Made by a program: the position numbers and the translations under genes. The notes beneath the pieces are model-generated. The model was not told where the DNA came from. It searched no databases and worked only from the letters and a program-made list of their open reading frames with translations. This document shows, one piece after another, positions 3,596 to 63,520 of a stretch of 64,000 nt of DNA (position 1 is the first letter of the stretch; the number at the start of each line of letters is the position of its first letter). The DNA comes from Pecten maximus (taxonomy: Eukaryota): positions 30,595,465-30,659,464 of the forward strand of contig NC_047022.1 of the NCBI RefSeq assembly GCF_902652985.1, written 5' to 3'.

Positions 3596-4420
3596 TGACT
3601 CTTTGCATCTTACCTCGTGTTCTCTGACCTCTTACCTCGTGTTCTCTGACCTCTTACCTTGTGTTCTCTGACCCCTTACCTTGTGTTCTCTGACCTCTTA
3701 CCTCGTGTTCTCTGACCTCTGACCTCGTGTTCTCTGACCTCGTGTTCTCTGACCTCTTACCTCGTGTTCTCTGACCCCTTACCTCATGTTCTCTGACCTC
3801 TTACCTCGTGTTCTCTGACCTCTTACCTTGTGTTCTCTGACCCCTTACCTTGTGTTCTCTGACCTCTTACCTTGTGTTCTCTGACCTCTTACCTCGTGTT
3901 CTCTGACCTCGTGTTCTCTGACCTCTTACCTCGTGTTCTCTGACCTCTTACCTCGTGTTCTCTGACCCCTTACCTCGTGTTCTCTGACCCCTTACCTTGT
4001 GTTCTCTGACCCCTTACCTTGTTTTCTCTGACCTCTTACCTTGTGTTCTCTGACCTCTTACCTCGTGTTCTCTGACCTCTTACCTCGTGTTCTCTGACCT
4101 CTTACCTCGTGTTCTCTGACCCCTTACCTCGTGTTCTCTGACCCCTTACCTTGTGTTCTCTGACCCCTTACCTTGTTTTCTCTGACCCCTCTCCTTGTGT
4201 TCTCCGACCCCTTATCATGTGTTCTCCGTCTACTTCCCTTATTATATCCAACCCCTTACCATTTGTTCTCCAACACCTTACCTTGTGTTCTCCAACACCT
4301 TACCTTGTGTTCTTTGACCCGATCCCTTATGATATCTTACCCCTTATCTTGTGTTCTCTGACCCCTTTCCTTGTGTTCTCCATTACCTCACCTTGTGTTC
4401 TTTAACCCCATCCCTGATGA
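3596..4420. repeat. 22-bp minisatellite (unit ctcttacctcgtgttctctgac), about 37 copies, in the DEPDC5 R-S intron
   Basis: Visible periodicity. The ORFs at 4151-4405 are artefacts of this array. Confidence 0.95.
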
Positions 4421-4461
4421 TCTCTGACACTTGACCTGGTATTCTGACCCCTGACCTTTAC

Positions 4462-8885: not shown

Positions 8886-10262
8886 CGATAGTAAATATTA
8901 CACCACACAAAGATTTGTCAGGAAGGTACATACTATTACCTGTTTGTGAGAAAGAATATTACACCACACAAAGATTTGTCAGGAAGGTACATAACTATAC
9001 CTGTTTGTGAGAGTGAATATTACACCACATTAAGATTTGGTCAGGAAGGTACATTATTATACCTGTTTGTGAGAGTGAATATTACACCACACAAAGATTT
9101 GTCAGGAAGGTACATAACTATACCTGTTTGTGAGAGTGAATATTACACCACATTAAGATTTGGTCAGGAAGGTACATTATTATACCTGTTTGTGAGAGTG
9201 AATATTACACCACACAAAGATTTGTCAGGAAGGTACATAACTATACCTGTTTGTGAGAGTGAATATTACACCACACAAAGATTTGTCAGGAAGGTACATA
9301 ACTATACCTGTTTGTGAGAGTGAATATTACACCACATTAAGATTTGGTCAGGAAGGTACATTATTATACCTGTTTGTGAGAGTGAATATTACACCACACA
9401 AAGATTTGTCAGGAAGGTACATAACTATACCTGTTTGTGAGAGTGAATATTACACCACACAAAGATTTGTCAGGAAGGTACATAACTATACCTGTTTGTG
9501 AGAGTGAATATTACACCACACAAAGATTTGTCAGGAAGGTACATAACTATACCTGTTTGTGAGGGTGAATATTACACCACACAAAGATTTGTCAGGAAGG
9601 TACATAACTATACCTGTTTGTGAGGGTGAATATTACACCACACAAAGATTTGTCAGGAAGGTACATAACTATTACCTGTTTGTGAGAGTGAATATTACAC
9701 CACATTAAGATTTGTCAGGAAGGTACATAACTATACCTGTTTGTGAGGATAATTACACCACACAAAGATTTGTCAGGAAGGTACATAACTATTACCTGTT
9801 TGTGAGAGTGAATATTACTGTAACACCACATTAAGATTTGTCAGGAAGGTACATAACTATACCTGTTTGTGAGGGTAATTACACCACACAAAGATTTGTC
9901 AGGAAGGTACATAACTATTACCTGTTTGTGAGAGTGAATATTACTGTAACACCACACAAAGATTTGTCAGGAAGGTACATAACTATACCTGTTTGTGAGA
10001 GTGAATATTACACCACATTAAGATTTGTCAGGAAGGTACATAACTATACCTGTTTGTGAGAGTGAATATTACACCACATTAAGATTTGTCAGGAAGGTAC
10101 ATAACTATACCTGTTTGTGAGGGTGAATATTACACCACATTAAGATTTGGTCAGGAAGGTACATAACTATACCTGTTTGTGAGGGTGAATATTACACCAC
10201 ATTAAGATTTGGTCAGGAAGGTACATAACTATACCTGTTTGTGAGAGTGAATATTACACCTC
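8886..10262. repeat. 60/61-bp minisatellite (unit ..tattacaccacacaaagatttgtcaggaaggtacataactatacctgtttgtgagagtgaa), about 22 copies, in the DEPDC5 M-N intron
   Basis: Direct repeats with a variant sub-motif (cacattaagatttgg versus cacacaaagatttg). The ORFs at 8946-10059 are artefacts. Confidence 0.95.
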
Positions 10263-10288
10263 ACTAATACTACATCTTTCACACTTAC

Positions 10289-10441
10289 AGTTTGCTGTGG
10301 AGGTTTGATTCGTGGGATGAAGCTGCCGTGGAGATGAGCCTGAATCTGGTTCTTGGACAGATAAAAGCTGTGATTCATCCAGTGTGGAATGTTGTAGTCA
10401 TCACCAACCTGTAGAGTGGCCTTCAGATGGCGGTTGTGAAA
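10289..10441 (-). CDS. DEPDC5: DEPDC5 exon M ([51 protein letters not shown])
   Basis: Acceptor tttttgttcag|, donor AAACT|gtaagt. Anchored to ORF 10229..10555. Matches '[44 protein letters not shown]'. Confidence 0.9.
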
Positions 10442-15952: not shown

Positions 15953-16724
15953 CTGTAACAAGGCATTACCATGACAACAACAGGAGGTAAGTAAGGTAAC
16001 ACAGCTATACTAACACACCATTCATATCTGGCAACTAGACAATGCAGCGAATTACAGTCCTCACCGAATGTGAAGTTGTATGCCAAGAATACACAGATGA
16101 ATATTTACTGTAAGGGTTGTCTTTTTACCATGAAGTTAGAACTGGAGCCACCTATTCATTATTTGATTGCATTTGGTGGTATGGATTTTAGTGATATTAC
16201 TAATTTTATATCAGAATTCAAATGTGAAAACAAAAAAAAATCAAAGAGGCGATGCGACTAATTTGATAAATGATAATGCCCATTATATGGTGTAAAATCA
16301 TTTGTGCTTGTTTGAACTGATAATATAACTTCAAATTTGGCAGTTTACCAATTTAATTGGTTAAATACTGAATTTGATACTGTTTCCTGAACTAGAAATA
16401 TTTGATACCTGAATCCACTAAATTGTATTTAAAAGGAAATATTACACCTTGTGTATACATACAGATGTATCAGGATCAGACTGTATGGAAACTAAATAAC
16501 TATGTCAATGTATTACAAACATACATGGAAGAAAGAATCTGGTTGGTTTTTTTCAATGCCCCAGGTATGAAGTGCCAGTGTTGAGAAGCATGGAAGATTA
16601 TTTTATGTAGGTCAAAGGTCAAAATGTGTTACCCAACACACCACTTTGTTTAAGAAAAGTGTAGGAGATAGAGCCAGGACAAGATGATGTGTGGACGGAC
16701 GGACACAACGTAAAACTATAGCCC

Positions 16725-16748
16725 CCCCCCCCCCCCCCCCCCCCCCCT
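16725..16748. repeat. Poly-C homopolymer (C24)
   Basis: Read directly from the sequence. Confidence 0.99.
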
Positions 16749-38349: not shown

Positions 38350-38502
38350 CTGTGACTTTAGAGACAGAATTTCTGTTCTCAGTATACGTTCCGTCTCATC
38401 TTTCTCTGCCTCCAGCTGTTGATATTTTTGCTGCAGCTCCTCTAATTTGTTGGCAGCATTTTGATGGTTAGGCTGCTCCTTTTCCTCAACCATTCTCACA
38501 TC
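38350..38502 (-). CDS. C2H2-ZnF/coiled-coil gene, exon 6 (DVRMVEEKEQPNHQNAANKLEELQQKYQQLEAEKDETERILRTEILSLKSQ)
   Basis: Acceptor ggttgtag|, donor CACAG|gtttgt. Heptad-like coiled-coil composition. Confidence 0.75.
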
Positions 38503-38837: not shown

Positions 38838-39028
38838 CTCACTGGTGATAATCTGGGTGGTGTAAGAATTGCTGTTGTTTTCTATTGGCTCCTCCTGTAT
38901 GATCATAATGTGATGTGTTTGCCCATCTGATGTGTCCACAGTCTCATTGGCTGCTACAGATACATGGACAGAGCCCTCTGGTACCTTACCATTGGCCACG
39001 GACACCTGCTGAGGCTGGGTCATTAAAC
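38838..39028 (-). CDS. C2H2-ZnF/coiled-coil gene, exon 5 (GLMTQPQQVSVANGKVPEGSVHVSVAANETVDTSDGQTHHIMIIQEEPIENNSNSYTTQIITSE)
   Basis: Acceptor gttgcacag|, donor AGTGAG|gtactg. Anchored to ORF 38787..39044. Confidence 0.75.
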
Positions 39029-39649
39029 CTGTGCAACAATTCAATCACAAGATGTCAATCACAAGATGTTAGTTATGTATTTCCAGTTGAAATTGATTGT
39101 AAGTAAAATATGCAAGAACAATAATATATTTATTGTTATTTCTACCTTTTCAGTGAGTAATCTAAATCCATTTTCGTCACAATACAATTCATTTTTGTCC
39201 TACTATTTATATCCATATACTCCAAGATCTATTTGTATACTACACTTGATTGTTGTAATACTTGGGGCTATTCCATAATCATGTGTGTGGGAGGGGTGGG
39301 AGGCACTTGTAAGCCCTATTTTTGTAGTATTCCTTATACAATTTGTATATATGTTTTAATATCTGATGGATGGTGGGGTCTCTGATAAAATGCCTTTCAC
39401 CCCTCCACCATGAATAATTTTAGAACAGCCATTATCTTTTCTTAGAAAATGATCTAAATGTATTAAATGCTACAAAAATAATTTTTGGTGTGTATAAATG
39501 TATAATATTGTGGGTCCATGTGTCCCATAAAATACTATCACATAATCAAAAATCAGTTGTTCACTGCCTCAGTAAGGTTAGGGTGTGTAAGTTTGTACAG
39601 CTGTTTATAACTTTCATTATCCCTTGGTCAGACTTGATGACATAACAAC

Positions 39650-40610
39650 CTCTGTAGAGTATACTGTTTCCTGAACTACATTTGGTAAATATAAAGAGTA
39701 TAACCTACCCGTTTCCTGGCCAGACCCAATGACATAACAGCCTCTACGAGGGTTGTGTAGGAGTATAACCTACCTGTTTCCTGGGCCAGACTTGATGACA
39801 TGACAGCCTCTGTGAGGGTTGTGTATATAGGAGTATAACCTACCTGTTTCCTGGGCCAGACCCAATGACATAACAGCCTCTACGAGGGTTGTGTAGGAGT
39901 ATAACCTACCTGTTTCCTGGGCCAGACTTGATGACATGACAGCCTCTGTGAGGGTTGTGTATATAGGAGTATAACCTACCCGTTTCCTGGGCCAGACTTG
40001 ATGACATGACAGCCTCTGTGAGGGTTGTGTATATAGGGGTATAACCTACCTGTTTCCTGTGTCAGACTTGATGACATGACAGCCTCTGTGAGGGTTGTGT
40101 ATATAGGGGTATAACCTACCCGTTTCCTGGGCCAGATTTGATGACATGACAGCCTCTGTGAGGGTTGTGTATATAGGGGTATAACCTACCTGTTTCCTGG
40201 GCCAGACTTGATGACATGACAGCCTCTGTGAGGGTTGTGTATATAGGGGTATAACCTACCTGTTTCCTGTGCCAGACTTGATGACATGACAGTCTCTGTG
40301 AGGGTTGTGTATATAGGAGTATAACCTACCTGTTTCCTGTGCCAGACTTGATGACATGACAGCCTCTGTGAGGGTTGTGTATATAGGGGTATAACCTACC
40401 TGTTTCCTGTTCCAGACTTGATGACATGACAGCCTCTGTGAGGGTTGTGTATATAGGGTTATAACCTACCTGTTTCCTGTGCCAGACTTGATGACATGAC
40501 AGCCTCTGTGAGGGTTGTGTATATAGGGGTATAACCTACCTGCTTCCTGTGCCAGACTTGATGACATGACAGCCTCTGTGAGGGCTGGGTGTATTGATAT
40601 TCCTCCCTGG
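39650..40610. repeat. 70-bp tandem array, about 13 copies (unit ataacctacctgtttcctgggccagacttgatgacatgacagcctctgtgagggttgtgtatataggggt)
   Basis: Period 70 confirmed from line offsets. The unit is a copy of the last ~31 nt of the adjacent coding exon (40540-40660) plus its GT donor. Confidence 0.95.
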
Positions 40611-40660
40611 TCTAAAGTTGCTGTACTATCACAGTAGCCAGAGTTAGGGTTGTTCACCTC
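40540..40660 (-). CDS. C2H2-ZnF/coiled-coil gene, exon 4 (EVNNPNSGYCDSTATLDQGGISIHPALTEAVMSSSLAQEA)
   Basis: Acceptor ttattccag|, donor GCAG|gtaggt. Anchored to ORF 40466..40705. The 3' part of this exon plus its donor is the founder unit of the adjacent 70-bp tandem array. Confidence 0.75.
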
Positions 40661-41270
40661 CTGGAATAAAGATACAAAACATGAATCCTGAAAATGTTTG
40701 AACAAAACAAAATACTATAGTCATTCAATAGTCTGTCCTCATATTTACAAAAAAAAATTAAAAAAAACCCAAAAAAACACAACTGCTTTTAAAATAGAAA
40801 AAGGACCAAAAAATGATAAGGCATGAGATGCAATTTCAGTGAATGACATGTTGTCATCCCAATGACAATTATTTACAAGTATAAACCTATTCTACATGTA
40901 CATTGTACTCTTATATTCAACTATCCTACCTGTAATATATGTTGTACCTGTTTTACCTGTGTTTCACACACACACACACCTGTTCTACATGTATTTCACA
41001 ACAACATACTTTTATTCTTACTATCTAAGAGATACTTTTGTTTTACACCCCTCTATTCTATATTACACACCCTTGGCTTTACACATACATGTATCACCTA
41101 TTCTAACTGTATTTTACACATACTTATATTCCTGTAAATACATCATAAACACCTGCTTCAAATACTTCAATTTTACACACATACAGTCTTCATCTCTTTC
41201 GCACACATATGTTCTATCTTTATTGTATATTATCTATTCATTAGAATTTGATGATACACACCTGTGCTAC

Positions 41271-41452
41271 CTGAATCTGAAAAGTTGTCTGTGGATTTCG
41301 GAAGTGGGTTTTGTAATGTTTGATGGCCTCATCTCTCCTATTGAATCCATTTCTGCACCTGTAGCAATGCCAGTGCGCTCCTTTGAACTTCTTTTCACCT
41401 TTGATTACACCAACTATGTCGCAGTGATCACAACATCGGAGAATCTTTAGAC
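41271..41452 (-). CDS. C2H2-ZnF/coiled-coil gene, exon 3 (GLKILRCCDHCDIVGVIKGEKKFKGAHWHCYRCRNGFNRRDEAIKHYKTHFRNPQTTFQIQ)
   Basis: Acceptor tgatacag|, donor ATTCAG|gtagca. Anchored to ORF 41241..41516. Second C2H2 finger, CYRC-x12-H-x4-H. Confidence 0.8.
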
Positions 41453-41753: not shown

Positions 41754-41946
41754 CAGCAAAGTCTATGCCTTTGTCCACATGTTTAACTCTGTAATGTGCT
41801 TTTAATATGACAGGGTCCTGGTAGATGTCAGACTTAACACAGAATGGACAGTGCATATGTGCACTCTTGTTGGAACACATCTGGTCATAGCATGGAGCAG
41901 GGTTGTAGTTGTTTTCTGTTCCTTTAATTCGGACACTGGCATGAGT
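41754..41946 (-). CDS. C2H2-ZnF/coiled-coil gene, exon 2 (THASVRIKGTENNYNPAPCYDQMCSNKSAHMHCPFCVKSDIYQDPVILKAHYRVKHVDKGIDFA)
   Basis: Acceptor ttttgtag|, donor GCTG|gtaaat. Contains a C2H2 finger, CPFC-x12-H-x4-H. Confidence 0.75.
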
Positions 41947-42739: not shown

Positions 42740-44082
<1,343 letters not shown>

Positions 44083-52934: not shown

Positions 52935-54020
52935 TATAGATATACATGTTACGTACGAGAATCCTAAATCACTTTCCCTTATGTCTACAGAAATACATGT
53001 TACTGGAATCTTCCATCATCTTCCCTTATGTCTACAGAAATGCATGTTAATGGAATCCTCATTCAACTTCAATCATGTCTACAGAAATACACATGAGTGG
53101 AATCTTTTCAACCACCTCCCCTTATGTCTACAGAAATACACATTACTGGAATCTTCAATCCCCTTCCCTTGTGTCTACAGAAATACACATTACTGGAATC
53201 TTCAATCCCCTTCCCTTGTGTCTACAGAAATACACATTACTGGAATCTTCAATCCCCTTCCCTTGTGTCTACTGAAATACACATTACTGGAATCTTCAAT
53301 CGCCTTCCCTTGTGTCTACTGAAATACACATTACTGGAATCTTCAATCGCCTTCCCTTATGTCTACAGAAATACACATTACTGGAATCTTCAATCCCCTT
53401 CCCTTGTGTCTACTGAAATACACATTACTGGAATCTTCAATCCCCTTCCCTTGTGTCTACTGAAATACACATTACTGGAATCTTCAATCGCCTTTCCTTG
53501 TGTCTACAGAAATGCATGTTAATGGAATCCTCATTCAACTTCAATCATGTCTACAGAAATACACATGACTGGAATCTTTTCAACCACCTCCCCTTATGTC
53601 TACAGAAATACACATTACTGGAATCTTCAATCCCCTTCCCTTATGTCTACAGAAATACACATTACTGGAATCTTCAATCCCCTTCCCTTGTGTCTACAGA
53701 AATACATATTACTGGAATCTTCAATCCCCTTCCCTTGTGTCTACTGAAATACACATTACTGGAATCTTCAATCGCCTTCCCTTGTGTCTACAGAAATACA
53801 CATTACTGGAATCTTCAATCCCCTTCCCTTGTGTCTACAGAAATACACATTACTGGAATCTTCAATCGCCTTCCCTTGTGTCTACAGAAATACACATTAC
53901 TGGAATCTTCAATCCCCTTCCCTTGTGTCTACTGAAATACACATTACTGGAATCTTCAATCGCCTTCCCTTGTGTCTACAGAAATACACATTACTGGAAT
54001 CTTCAATCCCCTTCCCTAGG
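52935..54020. repeat. 47-bp minisatellite (ccttcccttgtgtctacagaaatacacattactggaatcttcaatcc), about 23 copies
   Basis: Visible periodicity. The ORFs at 52930-54126 are artefacts. Confidence 0.95.
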
Positions 54021-56657: not shown

Positions 56658-57029
56658 CTGCACAACACAAAAATGAACACAATTACCCAACAAGATGATG
56701 AAAGTGAAGATTTCTAAGACTGAAAAGTTTTCTGCATTAAATATCTTTGAAGAAAATCCGAAAGCATAATGTCATTAGGTCACTGGACTGAAAAGATGAG
56801 ATAATAATTGTGAAACACAAATTAGTGGGATGCACTGTACCTCCCTGACAAGTGTGATAAACTATTTCTCAATGTATCTCACTGAGAAGCTTATCATGTT
56901 TATCTGCATTAAAGCTCTGTCCCACAAATATGTCCCTTTCTGTATCTTTGCAGAATCATCAATTTTATTAAGTGGTTCATAAATAAGCTCTCCTCAAGTT
57001 TTAATAATTTTTACACTAGGTTTACTTGA

Positions 57030-57790
57030 GGGTAAATATGGTACTAAAATTGTTCATTAGGGGAGGGGGATTATTTGAGGATAAATATGGTACTAAAATT
57101 GTTCATTAGGGGAGGGGGATTATTTGAGGGTAAATATGGTACTAAAATTGTTCATTAGGGGAGGGGGATTATTTGAGGGTAAATATGGTACTAAAATTGT
57201 TCATTAGGGGAGGGGGATTATTTGAGGGTAAATATGGTACTAAAATTGTTCATTAGGGGAGGGGGATCATTTGAGGGTAAATATGGTACTAAAATTGTTC
57301 ATTAGGGGAGGGGGATCATTTGAGGGTAAATATGGTACTAAAATTGTTCATTAGGGGAGGGGGATTATTTGAGGGTAAATATGGTACTAAAATTGTTCAT
57401 TAGGGGAGGGGGATCATTTGAGGGTAAATATGGTACTAAAATTGTTCATTAGGGGAGGGGGATTATTTGAGGGTAAATATGGTACTAAAATTGTTCATTA
57501 GGGGAGGGGGATTATTTAGGGTAAATATGGTACTAAAATTGTACATTAGAGGAAAGGGGTTATTTGAGGATAAATAGATACAAAAATTGTACATTTTGAA
57601 GAGTTTATTTAAGGATTAATAGGGTACAGAAATTGTACACTGGAAGGGGGGGGGGGGGGGGGGGTGTTATTCGAGGATAAATAGGGTACAAAAATTGTAC
57701 ACTAATGGAGGGGGGTAATTTGAGGATAAATAAGTACAAAAATAGTACACTTTGAAGTGTTTATTTGAGGATTGATAGGGTACACAAATT
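57030..57790. repeat. Minisatellite of about 50 bp (ggggagggggattatttgagggtaaatatggtactaaaattgttcatta), about 11 copies, plus divergent transition copies
   Basis: Same repeat family as the following 48-bp array but a distinct variant. Confidence 0.9.
57646..57663. repeat. Poly-G homopolymer (G18)
   Basis: Read directly from the sequence. Confidence 0.99.
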
Positions 57791-60405
57791 GTACTCAAGA
57801 GGAGGGGGAGTTATTTGAGGATAAATATGGAACTAAAATTGTACTCTAGAGGAGAGAGTTATTTGAGGATAAATATGGAACTAAACTTGTATTCTAGAGG
57901 AGGGGTTTATTTGAGGATAAATATGGAACTAAAATTGTATTCTAGAGGAGGGGTTTATTTGAGGATAAATATGGAACTAAAATTGTACTCTAGAGGAGGG
58001 GTTTATTTGAGGATAAATATGGAACTAAAATTGTACTCAAGAGGAGGGAGTTATTTGAGGATAAATATGGAACTAAAATTGTACTCAAGAGGAGGGGGAG
58101 TTATTTGAGGATAAATATGGAACTAAAATTGTACTCTAGAGGAGAGAGTTATTTGAGGATAAATATGGAACTAAACTTGTACTCAAGAGGAGGGGTTTAT
58201 TTGAGGATAAATATGGAACTAAAATTGTATTCTAGAGGAGGGGTTTATTTGAGGATAAATATGGAACTAAAATTGTATTCTAGAGGAGGGAGTTATTTGA
58301 GGATAAATATGGAACTAAAATTGTACTCAAGAGGAGGGGTTTATTTGAGGATAAATATGGAACTAAAATTGTACTCAAGAGGAGGGAGTTATTTGAGGAT
58401 AAATATGGAACTAAAATTGTATTCTAGAGGAGGGGTTTATTTGAGGATAAATATGGAACTAAAATTGTATTCTAGAGGAGGGGTTTATTTGAGGATAAAT
58501 ATGGAACTAAAATTGTACTCTAGAGGAGGGGTTTATTTGAGGATAAATATGGAACTAAAATTGTACTCAAGAGGAGGGAGTTATTTGAGGATAAATATGG
58601 AACTAAAATTGTACTCAAGAGGAGGGGGAGTTATTTGAGGATAAATATGGAACTAAAATTGTACTCTAGAGGAGAGAGTTATTTGAGGATAAATATGGAA
58701 CTAAACTTGTATTCTAGAGGAGGGGTTTATTTGAGGATAAATATGGAACTAAAATTGTATTCTAGAGGAGGGGTTTATTTGAGGATAAATATGGAACTAA
58801 AATTGTACTCTAGAGGAGGGGTTTATTTGAGGATAAATATGGAACTAAAATTGTACTCAAGAGGAGGGAGTTATTTGAGGATAAATATGGAACTAAAATT
58901 GTACTCAAGAGGAGGGGTTTATTTGAGGATAAATATGGAACTTAAATTGTACTCAAGAGGAGGGAGTTATTTGAGGATAAATATGGAACTAAAATTGTAT
59001 TCTAGAGGAGGGGTTTATTTGAGGATAAATATGGAACTAAAATTGTATTCTAGAGGAGGGGTTTATTTGAGGATAAATATGGAACTAAAATTGTACTCTA
59101 GAGGAGGGGTTTATTTGAGGATAAATATGGAACTAAAATTGTACTCAAGAGGAGGGAGTTATTTGAGGATAAATATGGAACTAAAATTGTACTCAAGAGG
59201 AGGGGTTTATTTGAGAATAAATATGGAACTAAAATTGTACTCAAGAGGAGGGGTTTATTTGAGGATAAATATGGAACTAAAATTGTACTCCAGAGGAGGG
59301 GTTTATTTGAGGATAAATATGGAACTAAAATTGTACTCAAGAGGAGGGGTTTATTTGAGAATAAATATGGAACTAAAATTGTATTCTAGAGGAGGGGGAG
59401 TTATTGGAGGATAAATATGGAACTAAAATTGTACTCAAGAGGAGGGGATTATTTGAGGATAAATATAGAACTAAAATTGTACTCTAGAGGAGGGGTTTAT
59501 TTGAGGATAAATATGGAACTAAAATTGTACTCTGGAGGAGGGGTTTATTTGAGGATAAATATGGAACTAAAATTGTACTCTAGAGGAGGGGATTATTTGA
59601 GGATAAATATGGAACTAAAATTGTACTCAAGAGGAGGGAGTTATTTGAGGATAAATATGGAACTAAAATTGTACTCAAGAAGAGGGAGTTATTTGAGGAT
59701 AAATATGGAACTAAAATTGTATTCTAGAGGAGGGGTTTATTTGAGGATAAATATGGAACTAAAATTGTACTCAAGAGGAGGGGTTTATTTGAGGATAAAT
59801 ATGGAACTAAAATTGTACTCAAGAGGAGGGGGAGTTATTTGAGGATAAATATGGAACTAAAATTGTACTCTAGAGGAGGGGATTATTTGAGGATAAATAT
59901 GGAACTAAAATTGTACTCTAGAGGAGGGGTTTATTTGAGGATAAATATGGAACTAAAATTGTACTCTAGAGGAAGGGGAGTTATTTTAGGATAAATATGG
60001 AACTAAAATTGTACTCTAGAGGAGGGGTTTATTTTAGGATAAATATGGAACTTAAATTGTACTCTAGAGGAGGGGTTTATTTGAGGATAAATATGGAACT
60101 AAAATTGTACTCTAGAGGAGGGGTTTATTTGAGGATAAATACGGAACTAAAGTTGTACACGTTTGGAGGGGATTATTTGAGGATAAAATACGGAGCTAAA
60201 ATTGTACACTATTGGAGTGGATTATTTGAGGATAAATATGGAACTAAAATTGTACTCTAGAGGAGGGGATTATTTGAGGATAAATATGGAACTAAAATTG
60301 TACTCTAGAGGAGGGGATTATTTGAGGATAAATATGGAACTAAAATTGTACACTATGGGAGGAGATTATTTGAAAGTAAATATGTTAGGTGTGATAAATT
60401 ATTTC
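57790..60405. repeat. 48-bp minisatellite (ggaggggtttatttgaggataaatatggaactaaaattgtactctaga), about 54 copies and 2.6 kb, in the gene X intron
   Basis: The 48-bp unit is a multiple of 3, which creates the long artefactual ORFs at 57815-60420. Confidence 0.95.
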
Positions 60406-63035: not shown

Positions 63036-63520
63036 GTTATTTTTTGTTTCTTTTTTTGTCAATCATATATGCTAAAATCTTTGAACGACTTCTTCTTGAT
63101 AACCAAAAGGCCCAGAGACCTAATATTGGGCCTGTAGCATGCTGGGATGAACGGCTACCAAGTTTGTTCAAATGGATGACCTTGACCTTCATTCAAGGTC
63201 AAAGGGGTCAAATATGAAAAAAATATTTGAACGACTTCTTCTTGATAACCAAAACGCCCAGAGACCCAATATTATATCTGTAGCATGCTGGGATGAAGGG
63301 CTACTAAGTTTGCTCAAATGGATGACCTTGACCTTCATTCAAGGTCACATGGGTCAAATATGCTAAAATCTTTAAATGACTTCTTCTTAATAACCAAAAG
63401 GTGCAGAGACCTGATATTGGGTCTGTAGCATGATGGGATGAAGGGCTACCAAGTTTGTTCGAATGAATGACCTTGACCTACATTCAAGGTCAAAGGGGTC
63501 AAATATGCTAAAATACATCA
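63036..63520. repeat. Tandem repeat of about 155 bp, 3 copies (..gaacgacttcttcttgataaccaaaaggcccagagacc..gatgaccttgaccttcattcaaggtcaaaggggtcaaatat..)
   Basis: Three diverged copies. Related 'tgacc..gtcaaggtcat' segments occur at 61960-62150 and 30540-30960. Confidence 0.85.

Follow-up and report, generated by a model that had tools for sequence, protein, structure and literature searches.

The window analysed here is a 64,000-nt stretch of Pecten maximus DNA (assembly GCF_902652985.1, NC_047022.1, positions 30,595,465-30,659,464, forward strand). Its composition is eukaryotic (about 35% G+C), and it is rich in minisatellites: seven arrays of 0.45-3.4 kb, with periods of 22, 61, 37, 31, 70, 47 and 48 nt, occupy about 9.4 kb, that is 15% of the window. 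Four of the large arrays (22-, 61-, 37- and 31-nt) lie in introns of DEPDC5, the gene to the left, encoded by the minus strand. The 70-nt array lies in an intron of another minus-strand gene. Five exons of this gene join in one open frame, with canonical AG/GT borders throughout, and the five-exon frame aligns with orthologs along its whole length. The gene is made up as follows.

41754..41946, minus strand: exon 2, the first coding exon seen (reading frame, ortholog alignment, tblastn)
41262..41452, minus strand: exon 3, which encodes the protein's conserved core, rich in Cys and His (reading frame, ortholog alignment, tblastn)
40540..40660, minus strand: exon 4, 121 nt, encoding EVNNPNSGYCDSTATLDQGGISIHPALTEAVMSSSLAQEA(G) and ending in phase 1 (reading frame, orthologs, tblastn)
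40529..40542, minus strand: authentic 5' splice site of exon 4, CAG/GTAGGTTATAC, with its GT at 40539-40538 (gene model)
39029..40539, minus strand: intron 4, in phase 1; the array makes up about 60% of its 1511 nt, the other 590 nt being unique
38838..39028, minus strand: exon 5, with the acceptor ttgcacag/GT (reading frame, tblastn)
38350..38502, minus strand: downstream coding exon of the same frame, joining exon 5 in frame
near 35839-35435, minus strand: a further 3' exon (tblastn)

The product is the ortholog of an uncharacterised, widely conserved protein known as zgc:193801 or 'C2H2-type domain-containing protein'. Its best protein matches come from Lingula, Patella, Ostrea, Batillaria and Dreissena (49-62% identity in the search and 52-65% in the alignment, E down to 8e-83), and short matches of high identity are confined to the conserved exon 3 or to exon 2. 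When the protein was searched against Pfam, no domain scored above threshold. Finger-like motifs sit in exons 2-3 and exon 4 is without a zinc finger, and the description of the repeat source as a 'C2H2-ZnF coding exon' in the initial annotation has to be dropped. Exon 4 ends in ...GCA CAG GAA GCA G/GTAGGTTATAC and exon 5 starts with GT TTA ATG, a glycine codon being split between the last G of exon 4 and the GT that opens exon 5. Among the five donors mapped in the gene, that of exon 4 is the best match to MAG/GTRAGT (8 of 9 positions). The same annotation had placed this donor at 40540; the site is the right one, 40540 being the last exon base and the GT the two nucleotides that follow it.

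As a separate observation, exon 3 has two in-frame donors 9 nt apart (41253-41279, minus strand), CAG/GTAGCA with the exon end at 41271 and CAG/GTGTGT with the exon end at 41262. The orthologs (QIQVAQ / QIQITQ) favour the distal one, and the two sites may form a small alternative 5' splice-site pair.

The 70-nt array and the exon 4/intron 4 junction

Tandem Repeats Finder (TRF) reports an array at 39698-40584 with a period of 70, 12.8 copies, 93% matches, 1% indels and a score of 1487. A 24-mer of the 70-bp unit has 12 matches in the 64-kb window, all of them at the array locus, vs none in 100 shuffles, and the array is thus a minisatellite in the sense of a head-to-tail unit of 10-100 bp repeated far beyond chance. 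A scan of metagenomes with a 25-mer of the unit gave no match. The 11-mer GGTAGGTTATA occurs 13 times on the minus strand, with no mismatch. One of these occurrences is the authentic donor of exon 4 and 12 lie within intron 4; the G that matches the last exon base is found at 40540, 40470, 40400, 40330, 40260, 40190, 40120, 40050, 39980, 39910, 39844, 39774 and 39709. The array announced in the initial annotation is therefore real, with 12 intact extra donors in the intron instead of about 13, a copy number taken from one assembly. Cut at the donor motif, it is organised in the following parts.

39698..40528, minus strand: twelve intronic units, u1-u12 (u0 being the exon copy)
39698..39968, minus strand: distal higher-order part, u9-u12, two dimers of 136 and 135 nt, each a standard unit plus a variant unit
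39620..39697, minus strand: degenerate distal tail, about 1.5 old units without a working donor (unit alignment)

Each of the units u1-u12 consists of an exon-derived segment followed by GTAGGTTATAC, the sense consensus being CCCTATATACACAACCCTCACAGAGGCTGTCATGTCATCAAGTCTGGCCCAGGAAACAG/GTAGGTTATAC. Ten of them are 70 nt long, whereas u10 has 66 nt and u12 has 65. Identity to the consensus is 96-100% except for these two, which represent a shared 66/65-nt variant with 11-13 differences from the consensus; the other ten are 0-3 nt away from it, and the amplification, called recent by the initial annotation, does look recent or homogenised. Units u1, u3 and u4 carry the GGCACAGG of the exon, while u5, u6 and u8-u11 carry GGCCCAGG; all units read GAAACAG where exon 4 reads GAAGCAG. 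The motif GTAGGTTATA is intact in the 12 units and exact in all 13 copies when the exon is counted, and the pseudo-donors read CAG/GTAGGT in nine units and CGG/GTAGGT in three. In the tail, one donor has been deleted (CAGGAAACAG------TATAC) and the other is mutated (GGGATAATGAAAGTTATAA); a match to the 24-mer of the unit with three mismatches (39628-39651) falls inside this tail. Near-identical units, a degenerate edge and proximal units with the exon variant are what is usually seen when an array is young or homogenised and its edges are older, and we read the units in this way.

Alignment of exon 4 with the unit gives an ungapped match of 54 nt with 5 mismatches. Its score of 83 compares with 13.3 +/- 2.3 for shuffled sequences, none of 2000 shuffles scoring as high. 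The last 45 nt of the exon together with the first 11 nt of the intron are identical to u3 at 55 of 56 positions. The units thus contain at least 45 nt of near-identical exon sequence, 54-59 nt of exon sequence in all, plus 11 nt of intron, in the same order, on the same strand and contiguous with the true junction, as a duplication spanning that junction should be. That the unit stems from the exon 4/intron 4 junction, donor included, is borne out by the exon alignment and by the exact donor motif in 13 copies, and the copied part of the exon is considerably longer than the 'last ~31 nt' proposed at the outset. The cyclic nature of the repeat leaves two possibilities for the founding segment, 59 nt of exon and 11 nt of intron, or 45 and 25 nt. 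The differences between exon and units are unevenly spread: all units share three first-codon-position changes within 10 nt (ATACACCCAG to ATATACACAA), vs two changes over the remaining 45 nt. One clean duplication of 70 bp does not account for this pattern, and the array may go back to a more complex event.

The copied exon end encodes IHPALTEAVMSSSLAQEAG, which is conserved across phyla. The orthologous peptide is IHPVLTQAVMSTSLAETG in Ostrea and IHPVLTEAVMTTT in Saccoglossus, and the stretch IHPALTEAV is conserved in molluscs as well as in a brachiopod, an annelid and a hemichordate. As the peptide is shared by different phyla, the exon predates the array, and in the proximal copy we have a true end of a coding exon, older than the repeat. 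Comparison with an orthologous locus, which the initial annotation had suggested as a way of dating the amplification, was run at one locus of a distant gastropod, Patella vulgata. The homologous exon of P. vulgata ends in TCA G/gtaaat, in phase 1, and is followed by an intron of 5.5 kb. No such array is found in that intron, whose tandem repeats are located in its middle and have other periods and consensus units. The intron of the same phase and the conserved exon end show that both are ancient and that the array was derived from them in this lineage. Taken together with the similarity of the units, this identifies the array as a lineage-specific, young or homogenised minisatellite.

A transposon-borne or dispersed satellite was also considered and discarded, since the array is not flanked by inverted repeats and the 64-kb window holds no further copy of the unit. 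The inverted repeats of intron 4 are all within 39266-39480, in its unique part. This unique part contains a MITE-like element at 39266-39430, with 43-nt arms that are 72% complementary and 79 nt apart, and a second inverted pair of 15 nt (39317-39331 / 39466-39480).

Predicted splicing outcomes

We built in silico the transcript that would result from the use of each of the 13 donors. Among these simple shifts, the authentic donor alone keeps the frame open. Use of the u1 donor adds 70 nt and causes a frameshift with a stop in exon 5, and with any of the donors of u2-u12 the reading frame meets a TAG that the u1 donor itself creates (GG-TAG-G). The copies are consequently not the 'in-frame-capable pseudo-exon ends' that had been supposed. 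At least two introns lie downstream of the premature stops, for which reason the products of the extra donors should be targets of nonsense-mediated decay (NMD), and transcripts from any of these donors should be cleared by this pathway. In consensus quality the 12 pseudo-donors equal the real one; with extra donors as good as the genuine site, both donor competition and the production of NMD substrates from the array are plausible.

Recursive splicing at CAG/GTAGGT was rejected on sequence grounds as a further possibility: each site is preceded by 20 purine-rich nt that lack acceptor signals.

With respect to a possible role of the repeat RNA, an RNA consisting of exon 4 and three units folds less than its shuffles (z = +2.6), and a search of the repeat against Rfam retrieved no family. 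Nothing points to a role in RNA structure. At the level of the DNA, units differ from one another in 18 of the 70 columns. No variation is seen in the donor block (P ~0.03 when it is treated as a pre-specified block), and an equally long invariant block of 12 columns exists elsewhere in the unit. Conservation of the donors does not clearly exceed chance, and in units this young constraint cannot be told from recency.

Origin of the array and comparison with known systems

The reading that we consider likely is that of a passenger: an intronic minisatellite, specific to this lineage, that arose by tandem duplication straddling an existing exon-intron boundary. Some 70 bp, made up of 54-59 nt from the end of exon 4 and 11 nt from the start of intron 4, would have been duplicated head-to-tail. 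Replication slippage or unequal exchange would then have raised the number of extra units to 12, with duplication of a 136-nt dimer at the far end. The 5'-most copy, located 121 nt from the acceptor of the exon and transcribed first, would most likely still be chosen by exon definition; all sequence downstream of the first donor would then be removed as intron, and the protein would remain unchanged. A duplication of coding sequence could persist here because the first donor would still define the exon. The extra donors would probably divert some transcripts to NMD, and the array would probably be neutral to mildly costly, an element of splicing noise or of lowered expression whose effect changes with copy number, rather than a supplier of new protein isoforms. 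In experiments with duplicated identical 5' splice sites (Reed and Maniatis in 1986, Eperon et al. in 1993), the site nearest the 3' splice site was reportedly often favoured; such a preference would predict heavy mis-splicing here, which makes the word 'neutral' less certain.

Alternatively, the array could be a splicing-regulatory module, in which 12 strong U1 sites combined with weak acceptors would act as decoy exons, leading to detention or retention of intron 4 or to diversion of a tunable share of transcripts to NMD, or would guard the pre-mRNA against premature cleavage (telescripting), the copy number setting the output. The donor motifs intact in all units (with the full CAG/GTAGGT in nine of the 12), the premature stop in every mis-spliced product, the absence of RNA structure that could hide the donors and the presence in the window of a second donor-rich array adjoining another probable exon would all suit such a module. 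Against this, the invariance of the donor block does not clearly exceed chance, as seen above, the overall similarity of the units makes conservation indistinguishable from youth, and the array is absent at the P. vulgata locus, the one ortholog compared. We therefore regard a regulatory role as unlikely.

The units might also serve as a source of protein sequence. Within the unit, the acceptor-like CCCTCACAG/AG is followed after exactly 36 nt by the unit donor, and the resulting cassette is present in u1-u11, from the position 35 nt upstream of each matching G (G+35) down to that G. The example from the first unit is the following.

40470..40505, minus strand: hypothetical 36-nt in-frame cassette, cacag/AGGCTG...GAAACAG/gtaggt (read from the sequence)

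Inclusion of one cassette, from any of u1-u11, would keep the frame open and add the hypothetical 12-residue peptide EAVMSSSLAQET. The segment has what a cassette exon needs (splice sites on both sides, a length divisible by 3 and no stop), with a weak acceptor, and these attributes say nothing on its actual use. Length-variable isoforms of what would be a disordered linker could be generated in this way, and the copied segment does correspond to a poorly conserved linker whose length varies among orthologs. The pyrimidine tract is nevertheless poor when compared with the real acceptors of the gene, and CACAG/AG is also present inside the genuine exon 4, where it goes unused. Each cassette acceptor lies 34 nt from the preceding donor, so that adjacent cassettes cannot both be spliced, and no such peptide repeat is seen in any aligned ortholog. 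A function as cassette exons is very improbable on these grounds.

Weaker still is the case for the reverse direction, an older intronic or dispersed repeat exonised into the 3' end of the exon, or for an expansion artefact of the assembly: unit boundaries are ambiguous by cyclic permutation and assemblies are error-prone at tandem arrays, but the exon-end peptide conserved across phyla and the same intron phase in Patella make the exon the older partner, the rest of the window holds no copy of the unit, and assembly stutter does not give units their own substitutions, a dimer of higher order or decay at the edge, which makes this alternative very improbable as well.

The duplication of a junction proposed above belongs to a process class that is already known, that of duplicated splice motifs. 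In the model of Rogers, introns are gained by tandem duplication of a segment containing AGGT (reviewed in PMC3443670; Drosophila, PMC2891723; RdRp of potato, PMC4974935), and premature stops were present in all such introns studied in Drosophila (PMC2891723). Like in that model, a short tandem duplication multiplies a splice motif in P. maximus, the coding sequence is kept if the outermost sites are used, and copies left unspliced or spliced wrongly contain premature stops that expose them to NMD. Whereas the model deals with a purely exonic segment and a new intron, the Pecten array straddles an ancient phase-1 boundary and multiplies the donor side alone, with 12 extra copies. Intron gain itself does not apply to this locus: the homologous phase-1 intron is present in Patella and there is no new intron position. 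The locus differs from the model in that no intron has been gained, the donor side of an old intron having been multiplied. No paper with all the terms turned up in a full-text search for tandem repeats with an exon-intron boundary and a donor in every unit, a negative outcome that carries little weight.

Arrays with splice sites in each of their units were reportedly described by Zhuo et al. in PNAS in 2007, under the title 'Modern origin of numerous alternatively spliced human introns from tandem arrays'. As in those arrays, every unit of the Pecten repeat has a usable-looking 5' splice site together with a potential 3' one, offering many splicing choices. Unlike the human cases, in which new alternatively spliced introns reportedly appear in exons or UTRs, the Pecten array lies wholly downstream of the authentic donor, in an old intron, and its splice sites are putative. 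Intronic VNTRs or minisatellites have also been catalogued as splicing-associated tandem repeats in humans (PMC10078293). With these the Pecten array shares its position near a splice site, a likely variability in copy number and the potential to shift splicing. The splicing-associated VNTRs are generally not copies of exon ends and act via their length or via protein-binding motifs, whereas the Pecten unit is a complete copy of a junction.

Identical donors placed in series compete for one acceptor in cis-competition constructs, and intronic U1 sites can be non-productive decoys, as in decoy exons or U1 telescripting. Unlike the constructs, the Pecten array is a natural locus, with 13 donors that are each preceded by about 55 nt of the same upstream exon context. 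If the anatomy described here is right, the locus constitutes a natural experiment on the choice of 5' splice sites: thirteen identical or near-identical donors share the same upstream exon context of about 55 nt, how far they lie from the flanking acceptors is all that sets them apart, and protein comes from the first one only. Donor usage as a function of copy number would test the rules of exon definition and proximity in vivo, and measuring it would show how much NMD-coupled splicing noise is tolerated by a conserved gene. The locus also illustrates that a duplication of coding sequence can be harmless when the copy brings its own donor. It is a single locus, and arrays of this kind are to be expected now and then in a genome so rich in intronic minisatellites.

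Other arrays and features of the window

The density of minisatellites in the window is unusual, and several arrays fill 55-83% of their introns. Those that bear on the relation between arrays and 5' splice junctions, and the two arrays located further to the right, are the following.

3609-4458, minus strand: 22-nt array of about 39 copies, sense unit GGGGTCAGAGAACACAAG/GTAAG[AG], starting 3 nt after a probable exon
4541-4462, minus strand: probable 80-nt linker exon of DEPDC5, donor CAG/GTAAAG, with phases that fit the neighbouring exons 5783-5692 and 3355-3246
8890-10441, minus strand: DEPDC5 exon 10441-10289, supported by homology, and a 61-nt array of 22 copies that begins 21 nt downstream of its donor
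52959-54017, plus strand: 47-nt array
57019-60384, plus strand: 48-nt array

A fragment of cuttlefish DEPDC5, the closest match to the DEPDC5 linker, has a segment of the same length at the place of the 80-nt exon. The 22-nt array contains about 29 strong donor-like sites of the form [AG]AG/GTAAG[AG]. Its unit is identical to the end of the exon at 17 of 22 positions, a weak similarity (shuffle P = 0.023). The 37- and 31-nt arrays begin about 100 nt after donors, and comparison of the 61-, 37- and 31-nt arrays with their upstream junctions revealed no similarity.

Two of the five intronic arrays, the 70- and the 22-nt ones, start in the last bases of an exon and have a strong sense donor in each unit, which suggested the idea that 5' splice junctions are preferred birthplaces of minisatellites in this genome, or sites at which they are retained. 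With random placement of the founder, at least one donor-spanning array among five would be expected with P ~0.38 and at least two with P ~0.067. The two junction-adjoining arrays out of five are not significant and represent a lead only, and we think the idea more probably wrong than right by a wide measure. Were it true, it would imply either a mutational mechanism linked to junctions or selection for multiple intronic U1 sites, and under such selection donor arrays of variable copy number would be heritable dials on productive splicing.

For the 47- and 48-nt arrays, neither exon context nor homology was seen, and both are probably non-coding. None of the three plus-strand frames of the 47-nt array contains a stop. 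In the 48-nt array, which has 69.5 copies and a strong G skew, one frame is open, with ORFs of up to 259 aa made of RINMELKLYSRGGVYL repeats.

Some other features of the window were recorded along the way. A run of 26 C occupies 16722-16747, within an intron of DEPDC5. An intronless ORF of 174 aa at 43558-44082 (plus strand) encodes an ADAT2-like cytidine/adenosine deaminase (Pfam dCMP_cyt_deam_1, E = 7e-22); it is arranged head-to-head with the zinc-finger-like gene described above, and an AIF/NDH-like gene is present from about 44700. Near the right end of the window, at 63063-63514, a 145-nt unit is repeated 3.1 times, with a similar short ORF (..FERLLLDNQ.AQRPNI..) in each copy.
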